NCBI GenBank assembly: GCA_022709525.1
Contig: JAKLIQ010000003.1
Coordinates: forward strand, 129,771 to 193,770
Direction: 5' to 3'
Source: Candidatus Omnitrophota bacterium
Lineage (GTDB): Bacteria > Omnitrophota > Omnitrophia > Omnitrophales > Aquincolibacteriaceae
Length of the DNA stretch: 64,000 bases
In this document: one piece after another, positions 1,331 through 59,279 of the stretch
How the letters are laid out: every line of letters begins with the position of its first letter
Position numbering within the stretch: position 1 is the first letter of the stretch
Translations under genes and position numbers: made by a program
The notes under the pieces: model-generated
Seen by the model: the letters and a program-made list of their open reading frames with translations, nothing else
What the model was told of the DNA's origin: nothing
Database searches by the model: none

Positions 1331-1399
1331 TCCCGCCAAACAGTCCTCTTTCTTGGAAAATCAGGACGCGATCTTTGTGTTAGAATACCTTTTCTACGG

Positions 1400-1492
1400 A
1401 CCCCGTTAGATCTTTGACGGGGCGGTGACCATTTCAACTAGCGCAGTTAAAATGGTTCATGACGAGTTATGAAATAGGAGATCTAACGGGGT
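1400..1492. repeat. Inverted-repeat mini-element copy A (ACCCCGTTAGATCT ... AGATCTAACGGGGT), no ORF
   Basis: 1401-1413 CCCCGTTAGATCT is the exact reverse complement of 1479-1491 AGATCTAACGGGG; same termini as copies at 8158, 34498, 55687. Confidence 0.6.
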
Positions 1493-3407
1493 GGAGATCA
1501 AACGGCTTAAAGTCAACACCCAGATCGGGATCGGGGAGCTCGAAGCGCTTTTGGCAGAGCTTCATTACCAGAAAAGAGAATATGTCGCTTTGCCGGGGGA
1601 GTTCGCCGTGCGGGGCGGCACAGTCGATATTTATCCCGTAACTTACCGCCTTCCAGTCCGGATCCAGCTCCACGGCGACACGTTGGCCCAGATCCGTGAT
1701 TTCTCGCCCGCTTCCGGCGAAAGCACCGCGGTCTTTGAAGAAGTCTTTCTGATCGAAGTCTCCGACCTTTTCCGCAAAAAACTCCGTCGCATGGAAGAAC
1801 GCCTCGAAACTTTCGAGCCCGTTGCCGGCACGAAAGACCTCGAACGCGGCGATCTCGTCGTCCATCTCAAGTACGGCATCGGCCGTTTTCTCGGCACCAA
1901 AGTCATCCAAATGCAAAAGGTGCGCACCCGCTGCATGGCGATCGAATATGCTGACCGCGAGATCCTCTATCTTTCCATGGAAGAACCCGTCGAGCGCTAC
2001 ATCGGCGGCTCCGGCGTTTCTCCGAAACTTACCAAACTCAACACCCAAGAATGGGAACGGATCAAACACCGGACGCGGACGGCGCTTCACAAAGTCGCCC
2101 AAGACCTGCTGCAGATCCAGGCCAAACGCAGTCTTCTGAAAGGCCTGGCTTTTCCCAAGGACACGCCGTGGCAGCGTGAATTCGAGGAGGAATTCCCGTT
2201 CGAAGAAACGCCGGGACAAAAACGCGCGATCGAGGAAGTTAAACGCGATATGGAATCCGACGGGCCCATGGACCGGCTGCTTTGCGGGGATGTGGGTTAC
2301 GGCAAAACCGAAGTCGCGATGCGGGCCGCCTTCAAAGCGGTCATGGGAGGCAAGCAGGCCGCGTTCCTGGTGCCGACCACGATCCTGGCCGAACAGCATT
2401 ATATTTTACTCAAAGACCGCACCAAAAACTTTCCGGCGTCGGTCGGCCTTCTTTCAAGATTTCAAACGCCGCGGGAGCAAAAAGCGATCGTCAAAGCGCT
2501 CCGGGAGGGTGCGATGGATATTGTGATCGGGACCCACCGCCTCCTTTCCAAAGACATCCAGTTCAAGGACCTCGGCCTTGTGATCATTGATGAGGAACAG
2601 CGTTTCGGCGTCCGCCATAAAGAAAAGCTCAAACAAATGCGCACGCAGGTGGACGTTCTGACGCTTACCGCCACGCCGATCCCGAGGACGCTCCATATGG
2701 CGCTTCTGGGGGTCCGGGATATGTCGGTGATCGATACGCCGCCGGAAAACCGGTTGCCGATCGAAACTTTTGTGATGGAATATCACGAGAATATCGTCAA
2801 ACAGGCCATCGAACGGGAACTTGTCCGCAAGGGGCAGGTCTATTTTGTCCACAACCGCGTCCAATCCATCGAGCGGGTCCATGAAAGACTCAAGAAACTT
2901 CTGCCCGCCGTCCGGTTCGGCGTGATGCACGGGCAGATGAAAGTCGAGATGCTCGAGGGCGTTATGAAACAGTTCCTTAAAGGGGAGATTGATTGCCTTA
3001 TTTCGACCAACATCGTGGAATCCGGCATTGATATCCCGAACGTGAATACTTTGATCGTGGACCGGGCCGATTGCTTTGGCTTGGCCGATCTTTACCAGCT
3101 GCGCGGACGGGTCGGGCGTTTCAAGGAAAAACGGCAGGCCTTCGCCTATTTTTTGATCCCGAAGAACTGGGTCATGACCCAGGACGCGCAGAAGCGGCTT
3201 CACGCCATCGAAAAATTCACGCAACTCGGCTCGGGATTCAAGATCGCGATGGAAGACCTTGAGATCCGCGGAACCGGGAACCTGCTCGGGCACGAGCAAA
3301 GCGGCTTTATCCAGGCCGTCGGGTTCGATCTCTACTGCAAAATGCTTAAAAAAGCGGTCGAAGAGCAGAAAAGCAGTAGCTCGGGACTCGGGACTCGATC
3401 TTTGTAA
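1491..3407 (+). CDS. mfd: Transcription-repair coupling factor Mfd, short form (638 aa; RID + translocase modules only)
   Basis: CarD/TRCF RNAP-interacting motif GDLVVHLKYGIGRFLG; SF2 helicase motifs LLCGDVGYGKTEVA, DEEQRFGV, TLTATPIPRTL; TRG-region IRGTGNLLGHEQSGF. GTG start lies inside right IR of copy A, AGGAG at 1476-1480. Confidence 0.8.
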   Translation: MEIKRLKVNTQIGIGELEALLAELHYQKREYVALPGEFAVRGGTVDIYPVTYRLPVRIQLHGDTLAQIRDFSPASGESTAVFEEVFLIEVSDLFRKKLRRMEERLETFEPVAGTKDLERGDLVVHLKYGIGRFLGTKVIQMQKVRTRCMAIEYADREILYLSMEEPVERYIGGSGVSPKLTKLNTQEWERIKHRTRTALHKVAQDLLQIQAKRSLLKGLAFPKDTPWQREFEEEFPFEETPGQKRAIEEVKRDMESDGPMDRLLCGDVGYGKTEVAMRAAFKAVMGGKQAAFLVPTTILAEQHYILLKDRTKNFPASVGLLSRFQTPREQKAIVKALREGAMDIVIGTHRLLSKDIQFKDLGLVIIDEEQRFGVRHKEKLKQMRTQVDVLTLTATPIPRTLHMALLGVRDMSVIDTPPENRLPIETFVMEYHENIVKQAIERELVRKGQVYFVHNRVQSIERVHERLKKLLPAVRFGVMHGQMKVEMLEGVMKQFLKGEIDCLISTNIVESGIDIPNVNTLIVDRADCFGLADLYQLRGRVGRFKEKRQAFAYFLIPKNWVMTQDAQKRLHAIEKFTQLGSGFKIAMEDLEIRGTGNLLGHEQSGFIQAVGFDLYCKMLKKAVEEQKSSSSGLGTRSL

Positions 3408-3463: not shown

Positions 3464-4447
3464 ATGAAACGTCTTTTGCTGATCTCCATCATGTTATTCG
3501 TTCTGGAAATGCCGAAATGTTTGCCGCCTGTTCAAGCCGCCGAAGAAGAGCTCTTGGACCGCGTGGTGGCTGTGGTCAACGATGAAGTCATTACCCAGGC
3601 GGAGCTCGATACTTTTTTAAGGCCCGTGTACGAGGAATACAGAAAAGAATACAGTGGCGAAGCCCTGATCAAGGCCGTTAATGAGGTCCGCCAGAAGATC
3701 CTGAACCAGATGATCGAAGATAAGCTGGTCTATCAGGAGGCGGTCCGCCAGGAAATCGTGGTCAAAGACGAGGAAGTCGACAAGGAATTCGAGGAATTCA
3801 AATCCAGGCTCGAGAAGCCCGAAGATCTCGAGATGATGCTCGAGCGGGAAGGACTTACCTTAAAAGCGCTTCGAGAGCGTCTTAAAAAACAGGCCATGAT
3901 CCGTCAGTTGCAGGACCGCGAGGTCCGATCCCGGGTGGTCGTTTCTCCGACGGAAGTGGAGGACTTCTTCAGGAATAATCCCGATAAGTTCAAGGCGAAA
4001 GAGCGCATCAAGGTCCGCTCTCTTACGATCAAAAAAAGCGAAGAAGCCCGCTCCAAAGGGCTGACGGACGAAAAAGCGAAGCAGCGGATCGAGCTTTTGC
4101 AACAAAAGATCAAGCTTTACCGGAATTTCGATCAGATCGTGAAGGATTTTTCGGAGGACAGTCTTGCGAAACAGGAAGGCCTCGGGGACTGGATCGAACG
4201 CGGTACCATGATCGAATCGGTCGATAACGTGATCTTCAATACGCCGGTCGGACAAATGACCGGCATTGTGGAAACGCCCATCGGTTACCACATCTTCCGC
4301 ATCGAAGCCAAAGAACCCGAAAAGACGAGGACTTTTGAAGAGGTTAAAGACCAGATCGGCGGGTATCTCTTCCAGCAGGAAAGTAACGAACGTTTTCGCG
4401 CCTGGATGGAAGAGCTTAAGAAGTTGGCTTATATTTCCATAAAGTAA
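3464..4447 (+). CDS. surA: SurA-like periplasmic chaperone/PPIase (one parvulin domain), signal peptide
   Basis: N-terminal signal peptide MKRLLLISIMLFVL…; parvulin motif GYHIFRIE; conserved surA-pdxA-ksgA gene order. Confidence 0.7.
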   Translation: MKRLLLISIMLFVLEMPKCLPPVQAAEEELLDRVVAVVNDEVITQAELDTFLRPVYEEYRKEYSGEALIKAVNEVRQKILNQMIEDKLVYQEAVRQEIVVKDEEVDKEFEEFKSRLEKPEDLEMMLEREGLTLKALRERLKKQAMIRQLQDREVRSRVVVSPTEVEDFFRNNPDKFKAKERIKVRSLTIKKSEEARSKGLTDEKAKQRIELLQQKIKLYRNFDQIVKDFSEDSLAKQEGLGDWIERGTMIESVDNVIFNTPVGQMTGIVETPIGYHIFRIEAKEPEKTRTFEEVKDQIGGYLFQQESNERFRAWMEELKKLAYISIK

Positions 4448-7416: not shown

Positions 7417-8115
7417 ATGCTGACTATTGTTCCGACGCCGATCGGCCATCTTTCAGATATCACGCTCCGGGCGCTCGAGGCCTTGAAGAGCGCGGATATG
7501 GTTCTTTGCGAGGACACGCGCCAGACACAGAAGCTTTTGCAGCATTATGGGATCGCGAAACCCCTTTTCAGCTATCACGAGCACAGTTCTGCGCGGAAGA
7601 CCGATGAGATCATTTCGCTTTTAAAGGAAGGAAAGCGCCTCGCGCTCGTTTCAGACGGTGGCACGCCGCTTGTCTCCGATCCGGGATTCCAAGCGGTTCA
7701 TGCGGCGATCGCGGAGGGATTGCCGCTTGAGGTATTGCCGGGTCCTTCGGCCGTCATGACAGCCCTTGTGGCAAGCGGTCTTCCGACCGACAGCTTCAGT
7801 TTTTTAGGGTTTCTTTCGAACAAGGGGCAGAAACGGAAAAACGAGCTCAAAGCGTTAGCGGAGCGGGAAGAAACGCTGATCTTTTTTGAATCGCCCTTTC
7901 GGATCGTCAAGGCATTAGAAGATATGTTCCATGTTTTAGGGGATCGCGAAGCCGCGGTCGCGCGGGAACTTACAAAAAAATTCGAGGAGATCCTCCGCGG
8001 GCCTTTGTCGGAGCTGATACAGGATATGATAAAAAAACCGCGCAAAGGTGAAATGGTGGTGTTGGTAGCCGGCAAGGACCGGAAGAGCGTTTTGCCGAAA
8101 AGGAGCCAAGCATGA
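7417..8115 (+). CDS. rsmI: 16S rRNA 2'-O-ribose C1402 methyltransferase RsmI (tetrapyrrole-methylase fold)
   Basis: MLTIVPTPIGHLSDITLRALEALKSADMVLCEDTRQTQKLL N-terminus typical of RsmI. Confidence 0.8.
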   Translation: MLTIVPTPIGHLSDITLRALEALKSADMVLCEDTRQTQKLLQHYGIAKPLFSYHEHSSARKTDEIISLLKEGKRLALVSDGGTPLVSDPGFQAVHAAIAEGLPLEVLPGPSAVMTALVASGLPTDSFSFLGFLSNKGQKRKNELKALAEREETLIFFESPFRIVKALEDMFHVLGDREAAVARELTKKFEEILRGPLSELIQDMIKKPRKGEMVVLVAGKDRKSVLPKRSQA

Positions 8116-8174
8116 AACGGATCGCTTTTTTAGTGTCCGGCAGCGGGACGAATATGGACCCCGTTAGAGATTGA
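8112..8174 (+). pseudogene. purN: Orphaned original 5' end of purN (MKRIAFLVSGSGTNM + DPVRD*), cut off by element insertion
   Basis: ATG overlaps rsmI stop (ATGA); 13/15 aa identical to start of intact purN at 8446; frame runs into left IR and stops at TGA 8172-8174. Confidence 0.55.
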
Positions 8175-8438
8175 GTGTGATGTATTACACTTATGTTTTG
8201 AGAAGTAAAAAGGATGGTCGATTGTACACAGGTTATGCTTCAGATTTACAGAAGCGCTTCAAACAACATAATGCTGGTGAAGTGCCCGCCACTAAATTCA
8301 GGAGGCCTTTGGAACTCATTTACTGTGAAGCATGTGTTCGTGCGGAAGATGCCAGGGCAAGAGAAAGATACTTGAAAACTGGAATGGGGAAACGATATTT
8401 ACGGAATCGTTTGAAGCGCTTCTTATCTCTAACGGGGT
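8158..8438 (+). mobile_element. GIY-YIG-encoding element bounded by perfect 14-bp inverted repeats (ACCCCGTTAGAGAT / ATCTCTAACGGGGT)
   Basis: 8158-8171 and 8425-8438 are exact reverse complements; interior AT-rich vs host; interrupts purN; same termini found ORF-less at 4 other sites. Confidence 0.55.
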
Positions 8439-8449
8439 GGAAAACATGA
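8180..8449 (+). CDS. Small GIY-YIG nuclease-superfamily protein, YhbQ/UPF0213-like (89 aa)
   Basis: MYYTYVLRSKKDGRLYTGYASDLQKRFKQHN…YCEACVRAEDARARERYLK matches GIY…YTG…D…R…QH pattern of YhbQ family (from memory); ORF reads through right IR and stops at purN ATG. Confidence 0.75.
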   Translation: MYYTYVLRSKKDGRLYTGYASDLQKRFKQHNAGEVPATKFRRPLELIYCEACVRAEDARARERYLKTGMGKRYLRNRLKRFLSLTGWKT

Positions 8450-9024
8450 AACGCTTGGCATTTTTAGTTTCTGGAAACGGTACTAATATGGCGAATATCA
8501 TCGCTCGGATCAGGGCGGGCGAGATCTCCGCGGATCCTGCGATCGTGATCTCCAACAAGCCTGGCGCCAAGGCGCTGGAGAAGGCTTCGGCTCTTGGGGT
8601 CAAGACGGCGATGATCGATCATCAATCTTATGCCGATCGCGCGGCTTTTGATAAAGCGCTCGATCGATGCCTGGAAGAAAACAAGATCGACCTTGTGGTA
8701 CTGGCCGGGTTCATGCGCGTTTTGACCGAGGGGTTCGTAAGGAAATATTACGGGCGGCTTATCAATATCCACCCGGCGCTTTTACCGAAATTTCCCGGCG
8801 CTCATGCGATCAGGGACGCTTGGGAAGCGAAGGCAAAAGAGACCGGCGTGACGGTCCATTTTGTCGATACGGGCGTCGATACGGGCCCGCTTATCCTTCA
8901 GCGCAAGATCTCCATTCTTCCCAACGATACCCTGGAAACGCTCGAGACCCGCATCCATGAAGTCGAATACCAGCTTTATCCGGAAGCGCTCGACCTTGTT
9001 CTGAGAGGGAAAGCCAAACCCTAA
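8446..9024 (+). CDS. purN: Phosphoribosylglycinamide formyltransferase PurN (intact copy)
   Basis: MKRLAFLVSGNGTNM…, NIHPALLPKFPG, formyl transferase fold; first 45 nt AT3-rich unlike rest of gene. Confidence 0.85.
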   Translation: MKRLAFLVSGNGTNMANIIARIRAGEISADPAIVISNKPGAKALEKASALGVKTAMIDHQSYADRAAFDKALDRCLEENKIDLVVLAGFMRVLTEGFVRKYYGRLINIHPALLPKFPGAHAIRDAWEAKAKETGVTVHFVDTGVDTGPLILQRKISILPNDTLETLETRIHEVEYQLYPEALDLVLRGKAKP

Positions 9025-30455: not shown

Positions 30456-32404
30456 TGGAAGATTTTTTAGACCGTATCGCTTGTTTGTTTGCCAAAGCGC
30501 TCGTTTTCGCCTTAGAACGTTTACCGTTTGAAGCGAGACTGCGTTTCGGAAAAACGATCGGTCATCTTGTTTTCTTTTTTTCAAAGAAACGCCGGATCGC
30601 TTATACCAACTTAAAGGCGGCTCTTGGCGCCAAGCTTTCGGCAAGAGAACGCTGGAAAACAGTTTATGATCATTTGGGGCACATCGGCCAGATGATCGCA
30701 GAAGTCATGTCTTTTCGCCGGCTTACGCGCGAAGATATCGATCAAAATATCAAGATCCACCATCTGGAAAGATTCGAAAAACTTCTTCACTCCGGCCGCG
30801 GCGGCGTTTTGATCACGGCGCATTTCGGCAATTGGGAACTTCTTCAGGTGGTGGCGGGACTTCGCGGGACGCCGATCCATGTATTAGCGCGCGAACAGAA
30901 ATTCCCGCGTTTGAACGAATTCCTTAACAAGCTCCGCGAAACGCACGGATCGGTCGCGATCAGCCGCGGGGCGGGGATCCGTTCCCTTATCCGCGCGCTT
31001 CGCGAAAAACAATTGATCGGAGTTTTAGGGGACCAATCCGCCGGCAAAACCGGAGGCGTTATTCTGCCTTTTTTCGGCAGGAGGACGACGGTACCCACCG
31101 GAGCTTTTGAGCTTGCCCAACGCACCGATTCATTTATTCTCCCGTGTTTCATGGTAAGGACAAACGGCCGACAGCATGAAATTCATATCGGCGAACCGCT
31201 TAAAGACGACCCTTCTCTTGAAGCTTCCGCGCGGGTGGAATTCCAGGTAAAACAATATTTGCATGTCCTCGAAGATTTTATCAGCCGGTTCCCGGACCAG
31301 TGGCTTTGGGAGAATAAACGGTGGAAATACAGCTGGGACCGAAAAATCGTGATTCTTTCGGACGGGAAGGCCGGGCATTTTAAACAGTCGGAAGTGGTGG
31401 CTGGTATGCTAAGTGATTTTAAGGAATTTCACAGCCGTTCCGGATTGCAATTTGAAACCGAAAGGATCCTTGTCGAATACCGTTCCAAGCTCCACAGGAC
31501 CGCTTTGTTCTTGCTGGCGTTCCTGATGAAGCCCTGGATCCAGGGAAGAATCCGCTGGCTTGCTCCTTTTTTTACCGAAGAGACGCAGAGAGCCATCGAA
31601 GAAGTGAACGCGGATTTTCTGATCGCGGCCGGTTCGGGGCTTGCTCCGGTTCAAATGCTTTTGGCGCAAGAAACAGGTGCCAAGAAGATCGTGATCATGA
31701 ACCCGCCTTTTCCTTATTCCATGACCCATTACGATCTTGCGATCGTGCCCGCCCATGACGGCGGCAAAGTTCCCCGGAAAACATTTCGTTCGGTGATCAT
31801 GCCAAGCGGTTACCAGGCCTGCGACCGGACGGCGGATGTCCGGCTACTCGAGACAAAGTTGGGGGATGGGAGGCGCCCGAAGATCGCCGTTTTCTTGGGC
31901 GGCGCGACGCGGAGCTATGACCTGACCGTCTCGGATATGGAAAAGCTCTGTTCGATCCTTAAGCGCGTGGCACCCAGAGCCGGGGATTTTATGATTACGA
32001 CCTCCCGGCGCACCTCGGTCCATGTGGAGCGTTTTCTAAAGAGCACGCTTGCCGAACAGCCCGTCTGCCGGTTCCTTGTGATCGCCTCCGAAGAGAATCC
32101 ATCCTATGCGGCGAGCGGGATGATGGGGCTTGCCGATCTTCTGATCGTGACCGAAGACAGTCTCGCCATGATCTCTGAGGCCGTCGGAACAGGGAAGCGT
32201 GTGATCGTTCTCAGTTTGGGGGAAGGTGACCTGCCGGAGAAACATTACCGCTTTCATCAGATCTTGAGCCAGCGCGGACTCGTGACGCTCAGTTGCCTGG
32301 CGGACCTTGAAAAACATATCGGCGAGCTTTTAAACAAGCCGGCGTTTCCGGTACTTCGCCGGGAGAAAGAAACTTTAAGCGAACGCTTAGGGACCTTGAT
32401 ATGA
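30455..32404 (+). CDS. Fusion: LpxL/HtrB-family lipid A late acyltransferase (aa 1-~290) + ELM1/DUF1022-like domain (aa ~295-649)
   Basis: HFGNWELLQVV…PDQWLWENKRWK (LpxL) then KIVILSDGKAGHFKQSEVVAG (ELM1-like start). Confidence 0.65.
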   Translation: MEDFLDRIACLFAKALVFALERLPFEARLRFGKTIGHLVFFFSKKRRIAYTNLKAALGAKLSARERWKTVYDHLGHIGQMIAEVMSFRRLTREDIDQNIKIHHLERFEKLLHSGRGGVLITAHFGNWELLQVVAGLRGTPIHVLAREQKFPRLNEFLNKLRETHGSVAISRGAGIRSLIRALREKQLIGVLGDQSAGKTGGVILPFFGRRTTVPTGAFELAQRTDSFILPCFMVRTNGRQHEIHIGEPLKDDPSLEASARVEFQVKQYLHVLEDFISRFPDQWLWENKRWKYSWDRKIVILSDGKAGHFKQSEVVAGMLSDFKEFHSRSGLQFETERILVEYRSKLHRTALFLLAFLMKPWIQGRIRWLAPFFTEETQRAIEEVNADFLIAAGSGLAPVQMLLAQETGAKKIVIMNPPFPYSMTHYDLAIVPAHDGGKVPRKTFRSVIMPSGYQACDRTADVRLLETKLGDGRRPKIAVFLGGATRSYDLTVSDMEKLCSILKRVAPRAGDFMITTSRRTSVHVERFLKSTLAEQPVCRFLVIASEENPSYAASGMMGLADLLIVTEDSLAMISEAVGTGKRVIVLSLGEGDLPEKHYRFHQILSQRGLVTLSCLADLEKHIGELLNKPAFPVLRREKETLSERLGTLI

Positions 32405-34497
32405 AAGTGATGCAGCTTCTGCCGGCGCTTGAACTCGGCGGAACAGAGCGCGGTGTGGTCGATCTAGCACGCGCTATGAAAAAAGAAGGGCACGCGACCG
32501 TCGTAGTCTCTTCCGGCGGCGCGCTTGTCGCCGAACTTCAAAAAATGGGGATCCCGCATTATGGTCTTCCGGTCCATCAAAAGTCGCTCGCCGCGTTTTT
32601 TTTAGTCGAAGAACTCGTCAAGATCATCCAGCGGGAACGAGTCGACATCATCCATGCGCGAAGCCGGGTTCCGGCCTGGATCGGCTGGCTGGCGGCGCGC
32701 AAAACAGGCGTTCCGTTCATCACGACATGTCATGGGCATTATTCGGTCCATCTGATGAGTTTTGTCATGGGATGGGGAAAGCGTGTGATCGTCGCATCCC
32801 ACGCGATCGGAAGACGCATGATCGATGAATTCAATGTGCCTCCGGACAGGATCCGCCTGATCCCGCGCGGCGTTGATCTTTCCCAGTTTACTTTTTCTTT
32901 TGCGAAATTTGAGAAACACAAAGGGCCGATGCGAATCGTGCACATCGGAAGATTTTCTCCCGCGAAAGGACAAGTAGAATTTTTAAAGGCGGTCCATTTA
33001 CTTCGCAGCCGCCTTCCTCATTTTGAGGTGTGGATCGTCGGTTCGGAAGGGCGCGGCAAACATCGCTACACGGACCTTATGAAAAAAACGGTCCATCAAT
33101 TCGGCCTTGAATCCTGCGTGAAGATCCTTCCGCCGACCCGCGATGTGGCGGGGCTTCTGGCCCAGGCGGACCTTTTGGTCTTGTCGTCGCTTATCCCCGA
33201 GCCGTTCGGGCGCGTGATCATCGAGGCCGGCGCGGTTGGAACGCCTGTCGCGGCGACCTGGCTCGGCGGTGTACCGGACATTATCGACCATAACGAGAAT
33301 GGATTGCTTTTCCCGCCCAAGAATATTCCTGCAATGGCGGAAGCCATGTACGAACTTTTAACGGACCGGGAAAAAGCCAAGAATTTTGCGGTCAAACTCC
33401 GCAAAAAGGTGGAAGAAAAATTCAATCTCGAACAAATGGTCCGCAAAACGATCGAAGTCTATCAAGAAGTTAGAAAAAGACGGAAAATCCTCGTGATCAA
33501 ACTTGGCGCGATGGGCGATCTGATCCTGGTCGTGCCGAGCCTGCGGATGCTCCGGGAACGTTTTCCGGACGCGTCGATCACGCTTTTAGTCGACCGCAAG
33601 CTCGCTCCGATCGTTTCCGCGTGCCCTTATTTGAACGACATGATCCTTGTGGACCGGAAAAAACTTTCCAATCTTTTTTATCTTTTAAAGACCGCGCGCC
33701 GCGTCCGACGCGAAGGCTTTGATATCTCGGTCGACCTTCATAACAATAAATGGACGCATCTTCTGGCCTATCTTGGAGGTGTGATCCAGCGTTTCGGGTT
33801 CTCACGGGGGAAATGGGGCTTCCTGTTGAACCGTCCCGACAGGACCTTTGAGGTCGGAGATTCGCCCATCCGCCATCAATTCAGGGTGCTTTCCAAAGCC
33901 GGGGTCATCAAATTTGATGATGCGCTGGAGCTTTGGCCGAAGCCCGCAGACCTTGAAAAGGCCAAAGAAGCGATCACGACTTTAGAGCCCAAAGAGCATA
34001 CCAAGATCGTTGGATTCGTGATGGGATCAAGCCCGAATTGGCCGAGCAAACGTTGGCCCGCCGATCATTTCGTAAACCTTGCAAAACGGCTACTCGAAAA
34101 ATATGACGCAAGGATTGTTTTGATCGGTTCGCCGCAGGAAGCGGATCTTGCGAAGCCTTTTTATTCTTTCAAGTCCGGCGCTGTGCTGGACCTCACGGGG
34201 AAAACCGCGCTTGAAGAATTGCCGGCCTTTTTCAAACAGTTCCATCTGGTCGTGACGGGCGATACGGCGCCGCTTCATGTCGCTGCCGCCATGAACATTC
34301 CGACCGTTGCCCTTTTTGGGCCGACGGACGCCAAGCGCCATGTCCCGCCGGGGAAGCGGCTCGACGTCCTTTCCCATCATCTGCCTTGCCAGCCTTGCTA
34401 CAGCGGCACATGCAAGATCAAGGAAACCCAGGCCTGCCTGACGCATATTTCCGTTGAAGAAGTTTTTGAACACTGCCAGAGGATGCTTGGATCATGA
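32401..34497 (+). CDS. Fusion glycosyltransferase: GT4 (GT-B, aa 1-~360) + GT9 heptosyltransferase-like domain (aa ~365-698)
   Basis: EAGAVGTPVAATWLGGVPDIIDHNENGLLF (GT4 EX7E region) then ILVIKLGAMGDLILVVPSL (GT9 N-term). Confidence 0.7.
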   Translation: MKVMQLLPALELGGTERGVVDLARAMKKEGHATVVVSSGGALVAELQKMGIPHYGLPVHQKSLAAFFLVEELVKIIQRERVDIIHARSRVPAWIGWLAARKTGVPFITTCHGHYSVHLMSFVMGWGKRVIVASHAIGRRMIDEFNVPPDRIRLIPRGVDLSQFTFSFAKFEKHKGPMRIVHIGRFSPAKGQVEFLKAVHLLRSRLPHFEVWIVGSEGRGKHRYTDLMKKTVHQFGLESCVKILPPTRDVAGLLAQADLLVLSSLIPEPFGRVIIEAGAVGTPVAATWLGGVPDIIDHNENGLLFPPKNIPAMAEAMYELLTDREKAKNFAVKLRKKVEEKFNLEQMVRKTIEVYQEVRKRRKILVIKLGAMGDLILVVPSLRMLRERFPDASITLLVDRKLAPIVSACPYLNDMILVDRKKLSNLFYLLKTARRVRREGFDISVDLHNNKWTHLLAYLGGVIQRFGFSRGKWGFLLNRPDRTFEVGDSPIRHQFRVLSKAGVIKFDDALELWPKPADLEKAKEAITTLEPKEHTKIVGFVMGSSPNWPSKRWPADHFVNLAKRLLEKYDARIVLIGSPQEADLAKPFYSFKSGAVLDLTGKTALEELPAFFKQFHLVVTGDTAPLHVAAAMNIPTVALFGPTDAKRHVPPGKRLDVLSHHLPCQPCYSGTCKIKETQACLTHISVEEVFEHCQRMLGS

Positions 34498-34562
34498 ACC
34501 CTGTTAGAAACACGAAATATTTTAAAAAGGAAAAATACGATGCACTCCGTCTCTAACAGGGT
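34498..34562. repeat. Inverted-repeat mini-element copy C (ACCCTGTTAGAAAC…GTCTCTAACAGGGT)
   Basis: 13/14 complementary termini, 37-bp AT-rich interior, lies exactly between stop 34497 and GTG start 34561. Confidence 0.5.
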
Positions 34563-35589
34563 GAAGATCCTCGCGGTGATGAAAAATTGGCTCGGAGACC
34601 TTCTTTTCCAGATGCCGGCTCTTGATCTTATTAAACAAAAATATCCGGAGGCCCGGATCACTTGTATCGCCCCCGAACGCTGCCGGGAGATCCTAGAGGC
34701 GCATCCCGCCGTTTCGGATTTTTTGAGCTTTGACGAAAAGGGCGTTCACCGCTCGTGGTTCGCGAGAATAAAATTCCTTTTAGAGCTAAGAAAGAAAGGC
34801 CCTTGGGATCAAGGATATCTTTTCCACAGGTCCCGGAGCCGCGCGCTTTTACTTTTGCTTGCCGGCGTTAAGGAGCGGATCGGTTACAGCCGCGGGAGAA
34901 GGATTTTTTTAAACCGCCCGCTGATCGAGCCTGCGAAACCGATGCATCAACTGGATTATTTTTTTCACTTCATGAAGGAAGCCGGTTTCGAGCTTCCAGG
35001 CGAAAAGACATACCGGTTCTTTTTAAAGCCAGAGGATGAAAAAGAGGCTGCTAAAGCGCTGGAGTCCTCGGAGATTCGAGCCGGAGAAAGATATCTCTGT
35101 TTTCATCTCGGAGCGAATTGGGGCCCCAAGCGCTGGCCTTGCGGCCATTTTGCGGCGCTTGCCGATAAGATCGCGGAAAAAATGCGCGTTCCTATCGTTG
35201 TGACAGGCGCCGCAGGCGACGTGTCTCTTTGGGAGTCTTTCCGTTCTCAAGTTCGGCGCGCAAAAACCGTTTCTCTTATAGGAAAAACCGGGCTACGCGC
35301 GTCCGCAGCGGTCTATAAACGCGCGATCTGTCTTGTGACCGGCGATTCGGGGCCTATGCATATCGCATCCGGGGTCGGAGCTTCCGTCGTGGCGCTTTTT
35401 GGCCCGACCGATCCGAAACTGACCGGTCCGCGGGGAACGGGCGATAGTATTGTGCTACAATACGTTCCACCCGGTCATTCCACCCCATTTTTTGGCGAAG
35501 AAAAAGATCTTCCGGAAGGGGGATGGCTTGCTAAAATATCGCCCGATCAGGTCTTGGAGGCGGTCGAAAGGATCTTGAAAAAAGTATGA
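34561..35589 (+). CDS. ADP-heptose:LPS heptosyltransferase family (GT9)
   Basis: VKILAVMKNWLGDLLFQMPAL…GDSGPMHIASGVG; GTG start inside right IR (34540 start rejected). Confidence 0.7.
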   Translation: MKILAVMKNWLGDLLFQMPALDLIKQKYPEARITCIAPERCREILEAHPAVSDFLSFDEKGVHRSWFARIKFLLELRKKGPWDQGYLFHRSRSRALLLLLAGVKERIGYSRGRRIFLNRPLIEPAKPMHQLDYFFHFMKEAGFELPGEKTYRFFLKPEDEKEAAKALESSEIRAGERYLCFHLGANWGPKRWPCGHFAALADKIAEKMRVPIVVTGAAGDVSLWESFRSQVRRAKTVSLIGKTGLRASAAVYKRAICLVTGDSGPMHIASGVGASVVALFGPTDPKLTGPRGTGDSIVLQYVPPGHSTPFFGEEKDLPEGGWLAKISPDQVLEAVERILKKV

Positions 35590-43461: not shown

Positions 43462-44213
43462 GCATCAATCCCGTGAAAGCCATCGGCGTGATTCCCGCGC
43501 GTTTAGGCTCTACCCGTTTATCCGAGAAGATCCTCCGCTCGGTCGCCGGCAAACCGATGATCCAGCATGTCTGGGAACGCGCCAAGCAGGCAAAAAAATT
43601 TGAAGATGTGATCATTGCGACCGATGACGCGCGTATCGAAGCCTGCGTCAGAGGATTCGGCGGCAAGGCCTGTATGACCCGCAAAGACCATCCTAACGGC
43701 ACTTCGCGCATCGCAGAAGTGACGGAGCGTTTCAAGCAGGATATCGTGATCAACATCCAAGGCGACCAGCCGCTTGTGGATCCGAAAGCCCTGGATGAAA
43801 TGGTGAGCATCTTTGAAAAAGAAAAAAATGTGGAAATGCTGACCTTGGCCGTGCGGATGACGGACAAAGCGAGTTATGAAAATCCGAACGTTGTGAAAGT
43901 CGTTTGCGATGCCGAAGGCAACGCGCTTTATTTTTCGCGCGCCGCGATCCCTTTTTTTCAGGGAAAACAAGATTGTGCGTTCAGTTTTTTAAAACATCTC
44001 GGGGTTTACGGATACCGGCGGGATTTTCTCAAGGAATTTATCGGATGGGGGCCGGGGGTGCTGGAAAATACCGAGAAGCTTGAGCAGCTCAGGGTCCTTG
44101 AAAGGGGCCGTTCCATTCGCGTGATCGAAACGGCGTATGATTTCATCAGCGTGGACACGGAAGAGGACTTGCAAGAAGTGGAAAAACGTTTGCAGGTCAG
44201 GTCAACCCCGTGA
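43458..44213 (+). CDS. kdsB: 3-deoxy-manno-octulosonate cytidylyltransferase (CMP-Kdo synthetase)
   Basis: AIGVIPARLGSTRLSEKIL…NIQGDQPL. Confidence 0.85.
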   Translation: MSINPVKAIGVIPARLGSTRLSEKILRSVAGKPMIQHVWERAKQAKKFEDVIIATDDARIEACVRGFGGKACMTRKDHPNGTSRIAEVTERFKQDIVINIQGDQPLVDPKALDEMVSIFEKEKNVEMLTLAVRMTDKASYENPNVVKVVCDAEGNALYFSRAAIPFFQGKQDCAFSFLKHLGVYGYRRDFLKEFIGWGPGVLENTEKLEQLRVLERGRSIRVIETAYDFISVDTEEDLQEVEKRLQVRSTP

Positions 44214-44221
44214 GGAATTAG

Positions 44222-46733
<2,512 letters not shown>

Positions 46734-52965: not shown

Positions 52966-54714
52966 ATGAAAGAATACCAGGGGATCGGGGTTTCGCCGGG
53001 AGTCGCCATCGGAAAGGTTTTCGTGCTGCACAGCGGCGAATCCTTCAATCTGCCCAAGCGCGTCGTCGGCCCGGAGCAGATCTCCAACGAGATCGCGCGG
53101 TTCGAAGAGGCGCTGACACGCACCCGCACCGAGATCCTCGGGATCCGCCGGAAGCTTTCCGACCAGATCGGCCGGGAGAGCTCCGATATTTTTACAGCGC
53201 ATCTTTTGATCCTTGAAGACCGTACCTTGATCGAGGACGTGATCGAAGTGATCAAGAACGAAAGGGTCGGCGCGGAATACGCTTTCGCGGCCGTGATCCA
53301 GCGCTACTTTCAGGCTTTTTCCCAGATCAATGACGAATACCTCAAAGAACGCATCTCGGATATCCGCGATGTGGGCAAACGCCTTCTCGGGAACCTTTGC
53401 GGTGAGGAGAAAAAACGCCTCGAGGAATTTCAGGGGAAAGTGATCATCGCTTCACACGATCTCTCGCCTTCGGATACCGCTTCCCTTGATAAGAACAAGG
53501 TCCTGGCGTTCGTGACCGAGATCGGAGGGCCCACCTCGCATACGGCTATTCTCGGCCGTTCGCTCGAGATCCCCGCGATCGTCGGCATCGATAAGATCGT
53601 CAATGAACTCCAAGACGATGACACGATCATTGTGGACGGGACGCACGGTGTCGTGGTCATCAATCCCGACCAGCATACGATCGACAAGTTCAATTCTCAG
53701 GGGGACCGTTTTGTCCAGCTGACCAATGAGCTCGATAAACTTCGCGAGCTTCCGGCCGAGACGCTCGACGGAAAACGCATTATTTTAAGCGCCAATATCG
53801 AGTTCCATCATGAAATACCTTCCGTGTTCTCGCACGGCGGCGAAGGGGTCGGGCTTTACCGCACGGAATATTTTTATATGAACCGGACAACGCTTCCGAC
53901 CGAGCAGGAACAGTATGAGGCCTACCGCAAAGTGGCCGAGACTATGCACCCGCATCAGGTCATCATCCGCACCCTTGATCTCGGCGGGGACAAGTTTGCC
54001 TCGTCCTTAGAGATCCCGCATGAAATGAACCCCTCGCTTGGCTGGCGCGCCATCCGGTTCTGCCTGATGCGCAAGGATATCTTCAAAACGCAACTGCGGG
54101 CCATTCTCCGGGCCAGCGCCCACGGGAACTTGAAGATCATGTATCCAATGATCGCAAGCGTCTACGAGATCCGCGCGGCGCGGGAGGTCCTGAACGAAGC
54201 AAAAACCGAACTTGAAAGGGAGGGATTCCCGTTCAATAAAGATATCCGCGTGGGTGCCATGGTCGAGATCCCCTCAGCGGCGCTCGCCAGCGATGTGCTC
54301 GCTAAGGAAGTGGATTTCTTCTCCCTTGGCACGAACGACCTCATCCAGTATGTGCTCGCGATCGATCGCATGAATGAAAAGATCGCCTATATTTACGAGC
54401 CGACCCATCCGGCCATTATCCGTTTGATCGATATGACGATCCGCAACGGCCACGGCCACAATATCTGGGTGGGAAGTTGCGGCGAGATGTCTTCGGACCC
54501 CGCGATCGCGCTCTTCCTTGTCGGGCTCGGGATCGACGAGATCAGTGCAAGCCCGGTGGCCCTTCCCAAGATCAAAAAAGCGATCCGTTCGGTCCGCTAT
54601 GCGGACGCTTGCGAGATCGCTCAGCGGGCCCTCGCGTTCCATACAGGCAAAGAAGTTTATGATTTCCTGAAAGAAAAACTCAAAGGCGTTTGTCAGGAAC
54701 TGGTCGACGAATAA
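52966..54714 (+). CDS. ptsI: PEP-protein phosphotransferase Enzyme I
   Basis: GGPTSHTAILGRSLEIPAIVG, PEP-utilizing C-domain. Confidence 0.85.
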   Translation: MKEYQGIGVSPGVAIGKVFVLHSGESFNLPKRVVGPEQISNEIARFEEALTRTRTEILGIRRKLSDQIGRESSDIFTAHLLILEDRTLIEDVIEVIKNERVGAEYAFAAVIQRYFQAFSQINDEYLKERISDIRDVGKRLLGNLCGEEKKRLEEFQGKVIIASHDLSPSDTASLDKNKVLAFVTEIGGPTSHTAILGRSLEIPAIVGIDKIVNELQDDDTIIVDGTHGVVVINPDQHTIDKFNSQGDRFVQLTNELDKLRELPAETLDGKRIILSANIEFHHEIPSVFSHGGEGVGLYRTEYFYMNRTTLPTEQEQYEAYRKVAETMHPHQVIIRTLDLGGDKFASSLEIPHEMNPSLGWRAIRFCLMRKDIFKTQLRAILRASAHGNLKIMYPMIASVYEIRAAREVLNEAKTELEREGFPFNKDIRVGAMVEIPSAALASDVLAKEVDFFSLGTNDLIQYVLAIDRMNEKIAYIYEPTHPAIIRLIDMTIRNGHGHNIWVGSCGEMSSDPAIALFLVGLGIDEISASPVALPKIKKAIRSVRYADACEIAQRALAFHTGKEVYDFLKEKLKGVCQELVDE

Positions 54715-55703
54715 TGGAAGCTTATCTTAAAGATCTGGGTCCTCAGATCGTCAAAGCCCGCGCGATCGCCGCCGGCATCAGTCTTTCCCCGTCTTTCATC
54801 AAACGGCCCGCGAAGGTCCTCTATTGCGGGATGGGCGGATCCGCCATTAGCGGCGACATTCTCGGAACGATCGCTCAAAGCCGTTCCCGTATCCATTGGA
54901 CCGTGAACCGCACTTCGCGCCTTCCCGAATGGGTCGACTCCAAAACGATCGTGATCCTTTCCAGTTATTCCGGCAACACTCATGAGGTCCGGTCGATCTT
55001 TGAACAGGCTGTGGCGCGAAAGGCCCATTTTCTGGTGGTAGCTTCCGGGGGATGGCTTGCGGAGGAAGCGTTAAAAAGGAAGATCCCGTTCTTCCGCCTG
55101 CCGCAGGGTTATCCGCCGCGGTTCGCGATCGGCTATACGACCTTTTCGCTTCTTTTTCTTTTCATGCGTTACAAATGGTTCTCGGTCTCCGGAAAAGAGA
55201 TCCAGGAAGTGATCCGGGCCGTGAAACGCTTTCCTCAAAAAGAAGCCCACCGCCTTGCCAAACGGCTTTTTGAAAAAAATATTGCGATCTACGGGGGCGG
55301 CCTCATGCAATCGGCCGCTTTGCGGTGGCGCACCCAATTGGCGGAAAATGCGAAAACACTCGCTTCCTGCGAAGCGTTGCCCGAAATGTTCCACCATGAG
55401 ATCGAAGGATGGACCTTCCCGGTTTTTAAGGTCAAAAATTCCGTCGCGATCTTCTTGACGGACCGGAATGAACCGGACTGGCTTTTAAAGAAAAAACAAG
55501 TGGCCATGAAAGTGATCCGCGAAGGCGGCGCCGAGACGATCGAACTGAAGACGGCCGGCCAAGGGGCCCTGGCCCGTATTTTTTCCATGATCCTGCTCGG
55601 CGATTGGACAAGCTGTGAGCTTGCGAAGCTCTGCAAGGTCGATCCGATGTCGATCGGGGCGATCGATCGCATCAAAAAGGCGGTTCACCCCGTTAGAGAC
55701 TAA
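54714..55703 (+). CDS. SIS-domain bifunctional phosphoglucose/phosphomannose isomerase family protein
   Basis: VLYCGMGGSAISGDILGT; last residues HPVRD* encoded by left IR of copy D. Confidence 0.6.
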   Translation: MEAYLKDLGPQIVKARAIAAGISLSPSFIKRPAKVLYCGMGGSAISGDILGTIAQSRSRIHWTVNRTSRLPEWVDSKTIVILSSYSGNTHEVRSIFEQAVARKAHFLVVASGGWLAEEALKRKIPFFRLPQGYPPRFAIGYTTFSLLFLFMRYKWFSVSGKEIQEVIRAVKRFPQKEAHRLAKRLFEKNIAIYGGGLMQSAALRWRTQLAENAKTLASCEALPEMFHHEIEGWTFPVFKVKNSVAIFLTDRNEPDWLLKKKQVAMKVIREGGAETIELKTAGQGALARIFSMILLGDWTSCELAKLCKVDPMSIGAIDRIKKAVHPVRD

Positions 55704-55816
55704 CAGGGGAACGCTTTGTGATTTTTTGAGATGAAAAAGATGGGATCTCTGAAGAAACTCTTCAATCATTATTTAACGGAAGCGCCCGAAAAGGCGCTTC
55801 CTGTCTCTAACGGGGT
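55687..55816. repeat. Inverted-repeat mini-element copy D (ACCCCGTTAGAGAC…GTCTCTAACGGGGT)
   Basis: Perfect 14-bp reverse-complement termini 55687-55700 / 55803-55816; interior has strong hairpin GAAGCGCC-cgaaaa-GGCGCTTC and a 31-codon ORF. Confidence 0.55.
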
Positions 55817-55822
55817 AAATTC

Positions 55823-57805: not shown

Positions 57806-59227
57806 ATGAAAAAAAGTACGCTCAAAGCCAAAAACGATTTCAAGGTCGCGGACCTTTCTCTGGCTGATTGGGGCCGCAAAGAGATCGATATGGCGGAAAA
57901 AGAAATGCCGGGGCTTATGGCGACCCGCAAGAAATACGGGGCGCAAAAACCTCTCAAAGGAAAGCGGATCATGGGCAGTCTCCACATGACGATCCAGACC
58001 GCGGTCCTCATTGAGACTTTGGTCGAGCTTGGCGCCGACGTGCGTTGGTGCTCTTGCAATATTTTCTCGACACAGGACCATGCCGCGGCGGCGATCGCGG
58101 CCAAAGGCATTCCGGTCTTTGCGTGGAAAGGGGAAACCCTTGAGGAATACTGGTGGTGCACGCTTCAGGCTCTTAGTTTTCCGGGCGGCAAGGGGCCGAA
58201 CCTCGTCGTTGATGACGGCGGTGATGCGACGCTCATGATCCATCTGGGTTATGAGGCGGAAAAAAATCCCAGGATCCTGGATAAAAAAGTCGAGACCAAG
58301 GACGAGATCGAGCTGTTTGGTCTTTTGAAAAGAACTCTTAAGGAAGAGCCAAAAAAATGGCACGGCGTTGTCAAGGAGTGGGAAGGTGTTTCCGAAGAGA
58401 CCACAACCGGTGTTCACCGGCTTTACAAGATGCAGGAAGAAGGCAAACTTCTTGTTCCGGCCATCAATGTTAACGACTCGGTGACCAAATCCAAGTTCGA
58501 TAATCTTTACGGTTGCCGCGAATCCTTAGCCGACGGCATCAAGCGCGCGACCGATGTCATGGTTGCGGGCAAGATTGCCGTGATCCTGGGTTATGGGGAC
58601 GTGGGGAAAGGCAGCGCGCAGTCCCTGGCCGGGTTAAAGGCCCGCATCATTGTGACCGAGATCGATCCCATCTGCGCCCTCCAGGCGGCGATGGCCGGCT
58701 ATCAGGTGGCGCGGCTTGAAGATGTCCTTGCGACCGGCGATATTTTTGTCACAGCCACGGGGAATGTGGATGTGATCACCGCGGAACACATGTCTAAGAT
58801 GAAAGACGAAGCGATCGTCTGCAACATCGGGCACTTCGATAACGAGATCCAGGTCGCCCAGCTTGAAAAATGGCCGGGCATCAAAAAGATCAACATCAAA
58901 CCTCAGGTCGACAAATATGTTTTCCCGGACGGGCATTCCGTGATTCTTTTGGCGGAAGGCCGTCTCGTGAACCTCGGCTGCGCGACGGGCCATCCGAGCT
59001 TTGTGATGTCGAATTCCTTCACAAACCAAACACTTGCGCAGATCGATCTGGCGCTTCATCCGAAAAAACCGGGCGTTTACCGCCTCGATAAAAAACTCGA
59101 TGAGGAAGTCGCGCGGCTGCATCTTGATAAGCTCGGAGCGCGGCTCACCAAACTTACGAAAAAACAGGCCGACTATCTCGGTATTCCTTCCGACGGCCCG
59201 TTCAAACCCGACCACTACAAGTACTAA
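57806..59227 (+). CDS. ahcY: Adenosylhomocysteinase
   Basis: NAD-binding [20 protein letters not shown]. Confidence 0.9.
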
Positions 59228-59256
59228 ACCCCGCAGAGACCCGGTCTCTACGGGGT
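59228..59256. repeat. Compact hairpin related to the IR family (ACCCCGCAGAGAC-ccg-GTCTCTACGGGGT)
   Basis: Arms differ from family consensus by one indel each; abuts ahcY stop. Confidence 0.4.
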
Positions 59257-59279
59257 AGAGTGCGTCGCACCGGAAAGCC

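Follow-up and report, generated by a model that had tools for sequence, protein, structure and literature searches.

A 280-bp element with inverted-repeat ends carries a GIY-YIG nuclease gene and has shrunken gene-less copies between genes of uncultured bacteria

Among the described systems, the Ssn family of nucleases is the closest to the one analysed here. Ssn proteins are single-domain GIY-YIG proteins of about 94 amino acids, which cut single-stranded DNA only, a few bases 5' of a hairpin repeat (NTS/SRM), and also cut a hairpin assembled from two halves (Chenal et al. 2025, Nat Commun 16:2388; PMC11893778). The Ssn genes are flanked by NTS/SRM repeats, which are present in hundreds of copies. 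The NTS-ssnA-NTS arrangement was likened to an insertion sequence, in parallel with IS200/IS605 and REP/RAYT, and its mobility was hypothesised only (PMC11893778). Stand-alone prokaryotic GIY-YIG proteins have been grouped with Slx1 as the minimal form of the superfamily (Dunin-Horkawicz et al. 2006; PMC1564403), and a groundwater study found GIY-YIG genes among those transferred from Patescibacteria to other bacteria (PMC12455944). We analysed a stretch of 64,000 nucleotides from Candidatus Omnitrophota bacterium (assembly GCA_022709525.1, contig JAKLIQ010000003.1, positions 129,771 to 193,770), below called the window, in which a small GIY-YIG gene lies between two inverted repeats and the same repeats recur without the gene. 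These repeats are the ends of a selfish element of about 280 bp with one gene, and its shrunken gene-less copies lie between genes. In the literature on GIY-YIG together with transposases, terminal inverted repeats, MITEs (miniature inverted-repeat transposable elements), Omnitrophota or Patescibacteria, we found no description of this repeat or element.

The unit reads CCCCGTTAGAGAY...RTCTCTAACGGGG. It has 13-bp inverted repeats, runs from CCCC to GGGG and has a 4-mer of the form TNNA outside either end. The full-length copy in the window, copy B, consists of the following parts, P3 being a second stem.

8159-8437, plus strand: copy B, full-length element of 279 bp, CCCCGTTAGAGAT...ATCTCTAACGGGG, enclosing the GIY-YIG open reading frame (ORF)
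8155-8158 and 8438-8441: outer 4-mers of copy B, both TGGA; the left one is native purN codons 15-16, the right one came with the element
8180-8449, plus strand: GIY-YIG nuclease gene, 89 aa (Pfam PF01541, E = 2.9e-16), its stop overlapping the purN ATG (ATGA)
8250-8264, plus strand: 5' arm of P3, within the gene at the codons around DLQKRF, pairing with 8409-8423 (15/15 complementary)
8409-8423, plus strand: 3' arm of P3, codons LKRFL, followed by the right repeat at 8425-8437

The GC content of copy B is 43%, and that of the window is 53.8%. PF01541 (residues 1-68) is the sole Pfam domain of the protein, and no family was matched in NCBIfam and PHROGs. The AlphaFold2 model is compact (pLDDT 92.6), and among solved folds the UPF0213 protein BH0048 and the Slx1 nuclease domain come closest to it. 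Of 1386 relatives obtained in a protein search, the best 120 are 66-79% identical and mostly 86 aa long, and the few named ones among them come from Omnitrophota, WOR-3 and Minisyncoccia; homologs about 70% identical are found across several phyla. The catalytic-type residues are invariant in an alignment of 18 sequences. Judging by sequence, the protein is probably a single-domain GIY-YIG nuclease of 86-89 aa, of the Slx1 / UPF0213 / Ssn kind. The last four sense codons of its gene, TCT CTA ACG GGG (SLTG), are the right repeat, and the repeat is therefore part of the gene. In the same alignment ...KRFLSLTG stands at the right-repeat position in 14 of the 17 homologs, of which 11 end at SLTG and 3 extend by a few residues; the other 3 have the variants ILTG, SLTV and SLTE. 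One homolog continues ...SLTGVNPVRD, that is, the right repeat and then immediately a left repeat.

Like this system, Ssn has a single-domain GIY-YIG gene for about 90 aa between hairpin-capable repeats, with gene-less copies at gene borders. The hairpin of two halves that Ssn cuts would correspond to the situation of the two repeats here. The systems differ in the repeat sequence, in that half a hairpin stands on each side here with the right half coding, in the second stem inside the gene, and in the hosts, which here are uncultured phyla sharing a protein about 70% identical. Mobility was hypothesised for Ssn, whereas empty sites, a nested copy and an imported flank are seen here.

We compared the two stems across many elements. 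P3 is formed by the complementary borders of the stretch that is deleted in gene-less copies, codons 24-27 (GGAAACGCTTC) and 78-82 (GAAGCGTTTCC). In 22 full copies P3 is 97.6% paired, and 5 of its 11 pairs are doubly changed (20 cells), mostly at synonymous sites. None of 500 shuffles equalled this covariation, and a partner shifted by 1-3 columns gave only 42-56% pairing. In the gene-less derivatives P3 is a compact hairpin directly before the right repeat; RNAalifold recovered it unaided from 50 derivative tails, with 4 of 6 pairs compensated (e.g., A:U 22 vs G:C 22). At position 10 of the terminal stem, the innermost variable one, T:A, C:G and A:T occur, and the pair is Watson-Crick in 76 of 78 elements. 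The comparison shows that both repeats, and both arms of P3, are kept complementary by compensatory changes. In Rfam no family reached the gathering level for the window, and around copies B and D no meaningful match appeared at E <= 1.

The first-pass annotation of the window had claimed five copies of the repeat pair, A to E, and all five are there. It had also proposed a motif search with mismatches. With ACCCYGTTAGARAY and up to 2 mismatches, 9 matches were obtained in the window against 1.53 expected, and 0 of 100 shuffles reached 9; 8 of the 9 matches make up the four inverted pairs of copies A, B, C and D. The ninth match (44205-44218, ACCCCGTGAGGAAT) is a single arm without a partner at a gene junction, with the stop TGA at 44211-44213 and the next ATG at 44225. 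It could be a solo remnant or a chance match. The four gene-less copies are delimited as follows.

1401-1491, no strand: copy A, ORF-less relic of 91 bp, arms 1401-1413 and 1479-1491 (CCCCGTTAGATCT / AGATCTAACGGGG)
1397-1400 and 1492-1495: outer 4-mers of copy A, CGGA and TGGA
1491-1493, plus strand: mfd start GTG, made of the element's last G and the TG of TGGA
34499-34561, no strand: copy C, ORF-less relic of 63 bp, CCCTGTTAGAAAC...GTCTCTAACAGGG
34495-34498 and 34562-34565: outer 4-mers of copy C, TGAA (containing the upstream stop TGA) and TGAA
55688-55815, plus strand: copy D, ORF-less derivative of 128 bp, of the class of about 120 nt
55684-55687 and 55816-55819: outer 4-mers of copy D, TTCA and TAAA
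55778-55801, plus strand: compact P3 hairpin of copy D, GGAAGCGCC-CGAAAA-GGCGCTTCC
59229-59255, no strand: copy E, minimal hairpin CCCCGCAGAGACC-C-GGTCTCTACGGGG
59225-59228 and 59256-59259: outer 4-mers of copy E, TAAA (containing the stop TAA) and TAGA

As first read, the arms are 1400-1413 / 1479-1492 in copy A and 8158-8171 / 8425-8438 in copy B (complementary 14/14 in both), 34498-34511 / 34549-34562 in copy C (13/14) and 55687-55700 / 55803-55816 in copy D. The AGATCT variant is present in both arms of copy A, which means that complementarity was maintained; in copy C a C-to-T change in the left arm is paired by a G-to-A change in the right one. Copy A is identical in L001 and L002, two contigs of Candidatus Omnitrophota bacterium metagenome-assembled genomes (MAGs) that encode the exact GIY-YIG protein of copy B. 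Copy E (59228-59256 as first read) is a compact hairpin with arms shorter by one base each (ACCCCGCAGAGACC / GGTCTCTACGGGGT). It is a diverged minimal form, putatively assigned to the family by the similarity of its arms; minimal forms akin to it, of 34-42 nt, occur in L087 and L101.

The right repeat had been described as ending 0-15 nt before a start codon in every copy. This holds for four of them. The GTG codons of mfd (1491) and of the heptosyltransferase gene (34561), which had been placed inside the right repeats, overlap those of copies A and C, and the ATG comes 7 nt past the repeat in copy B (8446) and 6 nt past it in copy D (55823). It does not hold for copy E, with an ATG 23 nt past the hairpin (59280). 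Copy C also contains an in-frame ATG at 34540. The left repeat had further been said to end the upstream frame as ...PVRD* in copies B and D. In copy D it ends the SIS/PGI-like ORF (54690-55703). In copy B the frame ending ...DPVRD* is not the upstream gene; it is a truncated copy of the first 15 purN codons (8112-8174), and the upstream TP_methylase-family gene (rsmI here) stops at 8115.

The movement of the element is seen at copy B. Two Logan contigs of this species, L136 and L137, whose DNA is 98.7-99.1% identical on both sides, do not have this copy. In this empty allele rsmI directly overlaps purN, and the sequence reads ...GGGACGAATATGGAGAATCTGATCAAACGGATCAGG. The window reads ...AATATGGA[CCCC...GGGG]TGGAAAACATGAAACGCTTGGCA...AATATGGCGAATATCATCGCTCGGATCAGG. 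The left TGGA is native, because the empty allele has the same sequence there. New relative to the empty allele is the stretch 8159-8505, in which the element is followed by a spacer of 8 nt and by codons 1-20 of a different purN. The flanks of copy B are of two origins.

8112-8174, plus strand: truncated 5' end of the native purN, 15 codons that run into the left repeat and end DPVRD*; identical to the purN start in L136 and L137
8438-8505, plus strand: foreign flank of 68 nt, TGGAAAAC and codons 1-20 of the purN of another lineage

The foreign purN 5' end begins MKRLAFLVSGNGTNMANIIAR; among its first 20 codons, 12 are not those of the native gene, with synonymous changes in 7 and non-synonymous ones in 5. 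Its GC content at third codon positions is 0.43 (codons 1-21), compared with 0.65 in the rest of purN. Because copy B came with this foreign end, the first 15 purN codons are duplicated (8112-8174 and 8446-8505). Apparently, the right junction is a homologous crossover after 8505 and the left one a join at the common TGGA. Metagenome scans for the donor of the foreign purN end and for the native left flank gave no matches. In its own right, the purN duplication is a natural case of the entry of foreign DNA by homology on one side and a 4-nt join on the other.

At the site of copy A, the relatives L138 and L139 read ...gtgttagaatcttcgcATGGAAATCAAACGG and ...TGTTAGAATCTTCGC ATG GAA ATC AAA CGG, with ATGGAAATC (MEI...). 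The window reads ...TGTTAGAATACCTTTTCTA CGGA[CCCC...GGGG]TGGA GATCAAACGG, with the junction GGGG/TGGAGATC. The target was the TGGA of the mfd start ATGGAG; the insertion destroyed the ATG and gave a GTG at the junction. The mfd product begins VEIKRLKVN in the window, and MEIKRLKVN or MEIRRLRIN from an ATG in the relatives. The sequence AGGAG lies inside copy A, 10 nt upstream of the GTG. We also considered an in-frame read-through of copy A (93 bp, 1400-1492) and rejected it: the TAG at 1407 ends the frame, and the start of the relatives is at the insertion point. The target TATGGAGA is common to copies A and B. At copy C the GTG at 34561 is likewise formed at the junction, and its product begins VKILAV...; in both copies a TGNA 4-mer gives the GTG start through the junction G/TG. 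Separately, an extended -10-like sequence (TGTGTTAGAAT) is conserved 6-12 nt before the original mfd ATG (1376-1386 in the window; L138, L139). It is possible that mfd is leaderless in the relatives, and copy A may then be the whole 5' leader with its own AGGAG.

An empty site for copy D is present in L146, whose NTP-transferase protein is 90% identical. It reads GGCGGTGAGATCATGAGC, with the stop overlapping the start, and the filled site in the window reads GGCGG TTCA[128 bp]TAAA TTCATGAGC. The native ATGA, with its overlapping stop and start, is gone here: the stop now falls in or after the left repeat, and a new spacer precedes the ATG. At this junction a third lineage, ELA295 (L147 and L148; NTP-transferase 89% identical), has another derivative, about 100 nt long, and reads GGCGG TTTG[...]TGAA CTAATGGGG.

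L147 5887-5993 and L148 4840-4946, from the PGI-like gene to the NTP-transferase gene: ORF-less copy at the D junction in relatives

In L147 the right 4-mer looks native and the left one looks extra. The D junction is either a hot spot that was hit twice or the place of an old insertion that was precisely lost once.

The family also inserts into itself. In L017 the GIY-YIG gene (3775-4158, minus strand) is interrupted by a 110-bp ORF-less copy and reads CATGTTTA / CCTCGTTAGAG...CTCTAACGGGG / TAAACATAAAG, the nested insert standing between the slashes; the intact genes of L078 and L135 read CATGTTTACATAAAG. The insert amounts to the unit plus four bases. Its left 4-mer is that of the target, and its right 4-mer does not repeat the left one. 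This is the cleanest comparison of a filled and an empty site in the material. A further difference is seen at pgk-GIY-tpiA, a layout that L126 shares with L003 without the extra ORF-less copy of the latter. At the site of copy E the relatives carry an unrelated, longer spacer, and in close relatives the repeat was not found over 7-16 kb of corresponding regions. Thus, the elements have been gained, are absent in close relatives and can nest, and the family is mobile. Presence/absence variation had been set beforehand as a test, and it was observed for copy B, absent in a strain 98.7-99.1% identical, and for copy D, absent in a relative. The empty sites also bear out the earlier statement that the elements shape the starts and stops of their neighbours, at copy A (ATG to GTG) and at copy D (ATGA replaced).

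To see the family outside the window, species-representative genomes were scanned for the right end plus the two preceding codons (TTYYTNTCTCTAACGGGGT). This gave at least 119 places, from which all counts of elements given here are drawn. When CCGTTAGAGA was joined to the TCTCTAACGG that followed it within 600 nt, 117 units resulted, or 98 after deduplication. Among the matches listed, the right end occurs in Omnitrophota, many lineages of Patescibacteria, Elusimicrobia, Planctomycetota, Ratteibacteria, Stahlbacteria, Clostridia, Acidobacteria, Bacteroidales, Deltaproteobacteria and others. At least 8 of these places, found with this narrow pattern, are in a single MAG; the 64-kb window itself holds 5 copies. 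The right-end pattern was not found in the viral contigs scanned. The lengths of the units are bimodal, with 266-280 nt for full units with the gene and 101-142 nt (mostly 112-124) for the shorter class, and a few have 34-90 nt; the 98 elements comprise 28 full ones, 56 of the 120-nt class and 14 others.

The ORF-less copies of about 120 nt are internal-deletion derivatives of the full element. In L003 a full copy lies between pgk and tpiA, and four bases further on there is an ORF-less copy of 142 nt that consists of the first ~100 nt and the last ~25 nt of the GIY-YIG gene. An ORF-less copy in L050 retains the GIY-YIG translation MAYTYLIRSRKNNKWY.... In nhmmer searches the profile built from the 120-nt class finds copy D at E = 4e-20, and the full-copy profile finds its right end (E = 1.1e-7) and, faintly, its left part (E = 0.02). 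Copy D has lost codons 28-77 and kept the repeats and the P3 hairpin. Copies A, C and E are shorter relics. The first-pass annotation had described a MITE-like family whose autonomous member may be the GIY-YIG copy, and had proposed to align the interiors. On the whole this reading is supported: the profile matches agree with it for copy D, and L003 and L050 point the same way; the interiors of copies A, C and E do not follow, nor does the picture of a burst of near-identical MITEs.

We have shown that the elements are located at TNNA sites, at junctions of co-directional operon genes and mostly in the sense orientation: where there was enough flank, 13 full copies were sense and 1 antisense to the flanking genes, and 25 derivatives were sense and 6 antisense. 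Downstream starts mostly lie from -1 to +18 relative to the element end. Upstream stops are in the left 4-mer (TAA or TGA of TAAA/TGAA), in the TAG of CCCCGTTAG, or a few bases later. The right flank TAAAGGAG(G) follows many elements, and AGGAGG stands just to the left of others. Three full copies of the MAG JAHJGZ01 (L017, L078 and L135) are preceded by the same stretch of about 20 nt (..cgtaaatta..cgaagccag) on the left and followed by TAAAGGAGGA on the right. In this lineage the spreading unit is longer than from repeat to repeat, and it bears a Shine-Dalgarno sequence.

We also examined the flanking 4-mers of the 98 elements. The left 4-mer begins with T in 75 elements and ends with A in 66 or G in 27; the right one begins with T in 95 and ends with A in 87. 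Both 4-mers are identical in 37 elements, compared with 7.4 +/- 2.4 expected (maximum 19 in 10,000 partner shuffles). YTTG...TRAA flanks are present in about 14 elements, and 17 have TTYA...TRAA flanks, in which 3 or 4 of the 4 bases are complementary. The 4-mers differ among copies within one genome. The filled/empty pairs at L017 and the D junction show that insertions add 4 nt to the repeat-to-repeat unit. The left 4-mer is native and the right one imported at copy B and in L017; the reverse is seen in L147. Neither a simple 4-bp target duplication nor a simple rule of the IS608 type suits all filled/empty pairs, and both were rejected. Elements also stand head to tail with the 4-mer alone between them (e.g., GGGGG TAAA CCCC), as in L003 (3354-3785), L026, L045, L047, L076 and L133. 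It seems that new insertions favour the end of an element already present.

We consider it probable that these sequences form a family of tiny selfish elements moved via the nuclease, with copy B as the autonomous member, copy D as an internal-deletion derivative and copies A, C and E as relics. By analogy with Ssn, the nuclease would bind the hairpin of the two repeats, stacked on P3, in single-stranded DNA and would nick at the TNNA boundary. Host repair or ligation would then paste or copy the element into another TNNA site. The 4-nt flank would often travel with the element, so that one 4-mer is native, the other is imported, and the pair is often identical. One hypothetical scheme accommodates every filled/empty pair: the excised unit may retain 4-nt single-stranded flanks, whose outer T and A could pair with a target cut at TNNA. 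Segregation of such a heteroduplex would give either the old left and the native right 4-mer or the native left and the old right one, and the two would be identical when the donor and target 4-mers are the same. Copy B may be a one-sided variant of this process, in which the left side was end-joined at TGGA and the right side recombined homologously within purN.

Several results weigh against this explanation. We infer the cutting at TNNA, the single-stranded substrate and the joining step by analogy. Since GIY-YIG enzymes hydrolyse DNA but are unable to rejoin it, the explanation has to assume a partner from the host. The published SRM pattern (HGTCWY...RNCYNB) matches 0 of the 91 elements with flanks and gives 1 match, at chance level, in the window. 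The two 4-mers are identical in only 38% of elements (37/98), and the roughly 14 elements with a left YTTG fit neither simple duplication nor insertion beside a tetranucleotide. The interiors of derivatives are 0.58 identical within a genome and 0.55 between genomes, and hence recent mobilisation of derivatives in trans is not established. They look like independently shrunken or long-decayed copies rather than a recent burst of one master, and many may be old insertions that decayed in place. Neither the full-copy nor the 120-nt DNA profile matched copies A and C; what copies A, C and E have in common with the family is the termini only, and no homology of their interiors to the GIY-YIG gene can be demonstrated, which qualifies the claim of one family. 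The scan pattern includes the last bases of P3, which over-represents elements that retain P3, and copies A, C, E and bystander elements are without it. In addition, the P3 mismatches of derivatives (G.U 7 vs A.C 8) do not discriminate between DNA and RNA.

It is possible, although unlikely as the main explanation, that the conserved stems act mainly in RNA, as a folded insert in polycistronic mRNA that brings an upstream stop or an upstream Shine-Dalgarno sequence close to the downstream start, or as a processing site. In this way the interrupted operon would still be translated, and selection on the fold would account for the complementarity of the arms. The predominance of the sense orientation agrees with this, as do the upstream stops in or just before the left repeat and the starts 0-18 nt past the right one. 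About 14 elements have AGGAGG just before the left YTTG, which could form G.U pairs with the right TRAA. At the position beside CCCC, G.T occurs 25 times and A.C once, and the covariation in the gene includes synonymous sites. However, the gain and loss, the TNNA flanks, the nesting and the nuclease gene are left unexplained, and a role in RNA would be at best an added layer. The P3 mismatches of derivatives have no sense-strand bias (G.U 7, A.C 8), Rfam has no matching family, and RNA is left alone by those relatives of the nuclease that have been studied (PMC11893778). Across phyla the 13-bp repeat keeps its sequence and not just its pairing, which points to recognition by a protein. Known ribozymes and riboswitches were ruled out by the absent Rfam matches. 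Group I/II introns and small self-cleaving ribozymes do not suit elements that are too small for them, have no Rfam match and give their neighbours new starts of their own.

GIY-YIG is a classical family of homing enzymes. The gene could be a free-standing homing endonuclease gene whose product cuts chromosome copies without it and which is copied into them by double-strand-break repair, with dead ORF-less copies and with repeats that serve as the cut site or as expression signals. We regard this as quite unlikely. The co-transfer of the donor flank with a homologous crossover on one side resembles co-conversion, at copy B only, and the three copies of JAHJGZ01 share their ~20-nt left flank and TAAAGGAGGA on the right. 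Free-standing genes of the Seg, Mob and I-TevI type likewise have a GIY-YIG domain in a selfish gene. In contrast to these, the protein here has no DNA-binding domain according to Pfam and the model, the element has inverted-repeat ends and gene-less derivatives, and its many sites (mfd, purN, pgk-tpiA, PGI-like/NTP-transferase, another GIY-YIG gene) are unrelated and have only TNNA in common. Clean insertions of the unit plus 4 nt without shared flank do not suit homing, and the left junction of copy B is not homologous.

It is very unlikely that the element is a domesticated Ssn-like system kept for genome dynamics, in which the repeats mark the trimming of incoming or replicating single-stranded DNA, as was proposed for NTS and SsnA of Neisseria. 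Such a role would suit a homologous kind of nuclease, which has the association with repeats in common with Ssn (PMC11893778), and repeats at gene borders. It does not suit a nuclease gene that is present or absent between 99% identical strains, has a higher AT content than the host, keeps about 70% identity from phylum to phylum and is in places interrupted or decayed; moreover, close relatives have no copies in 7-16 kb of corresponding regions. Ordinary terminators or operators that recur by chance or by shared regulation are hardly credible, in spite of the location between genes and the likeness of copy E to a terminator hairpin, given 9 matches vs 1.5 expected, the same 13-bp sequence around a nuclease gene in many phyla, presence/absence at orthologous sites and no T run after the hairpins. 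Integron attC sites (GTTAGAG / CTCTAAC) were also rejected: there is no integrase, the sites are single and in housekeeping operons, and the repeats enclose a gene.

The proposal of selfish elements moved via the nuclease can be compared with other mobile systems. Neisseria Correia elements and Rickettsia palindromic elements are bacterial MITEs. Like them, the gene-less copies are short, have terminal inverted repeats, lie beside or inside genes and alter the expression signals of neighbours. Of the features of bacterial MITEs, terminal repeats common with a coding element were found, and many near-identical recent copies were not. The elements further differ from MITEs in that the partner is a hydrolytic nuclease and no DDE transposase, and in that their 4-mers are identical in 38%. 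IS200/IS605, palindrome-associated transposable elements (PATEs) and REP/RAYT (REPIN) have hairpin ends and gene-less palindromic derivatives, and the 4-mer beside the end matters in them. In IS608 the left 4-mer is that of the target and the right one that of the element. Two of the filled/empty pairs here are alike in this (copy B and L017), but L147 is not. Unlike IS200/IS605, the element has true terminal inverted repeats and no HUH/Y1 transposase, its sole ORF being GIY-YIG.

Among plasmids, the protein of the window matched a classical Ssn representative on the Azospirillum lipoferum plasmid AZO_p3 (L150 2879-3390). The gene lies between sufB and sufC in the sense orientation, and either side of it bears CGTCATCCCCGCGAAGGCGGGGATCCAG, a canonical SRM, in two inverted copies; the SRM pattern finds these 4 copies. 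Living within housekeeping operons is common to this gene and the present family. The family profile aligns with the Azospirillum gene (hhalign) at a probability of 96.7%, E = 4.5e-10 and 35% identity over 66 columns. In the plasmid and PDB searches the UPF0213 proteins YazA and BH0048 rank above it. The element thus shares with Ssn the kind of nuclease and the lifestyle, and by analogy it may work like an Ssn system with repeats of another sequence than SRM.

Two neighbouring genes have their own peculiarities. Mfd is 631-638 aa long here (1491-3407 in the window; 1523-3418 in L138; 2612-4507 in L139). It has the UvrB-interaction, CarD/TRCF RID and helicase domains, and the C-terminal TRCF domain and the long N-terminal module were not found. 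At 32401-34497 the window encodes a 698-aa fusion of a GT4 glycosyltransferase and a GT9 heptosyltransferase, directly upstream of the separate heptosyltransferase gene.

The Ssn study guessed that gene and repeats are mobile; this family supplies empty and filled sites, a nested copy, an imported flank and defined ends. The split hairpin, the coding repeat, the internal covarying stem that marks a recurrent deletion, the TNNA flanks, the spread across phyla and the direct evidence of movement are unreported for this kind. Inserts of the family affect the annotation of uncultured genomes: they create false short ORFs, shifted starts (mfd ATG to GTG), altered C-termini (PVRD*) and duplicated gene starts (purN). 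The system is compact (280 bp, 13-bp ends, TNNA), which would allow it to be rebuilt in vitro or in E. coli. For the single-stranded-DNA tools that have been proposed for Ssn, the nuclease together with its 13-nt site offers a new candidate pair. Tentatively, and with somewhat less than even confidence, we propose that this is the smallest autonomous transposable element, of about 280 bp with one 86-aa protein, and a new class of DNA transposons in which a hydrolytic GIY-YIG enzyme acts on a hairpin built from the ends. IS200 has about 700 bp, and self-transposition of the present element would more than halve the known minimum size of an autonomous element. If this is true, such elements carry their 4-nt flanks from site to site, cross phyla freely and can live in operons by supplying a stop, a spacer and a start, and the Ssn enzymes described in 2025 would originally be the nucleases of such elements.

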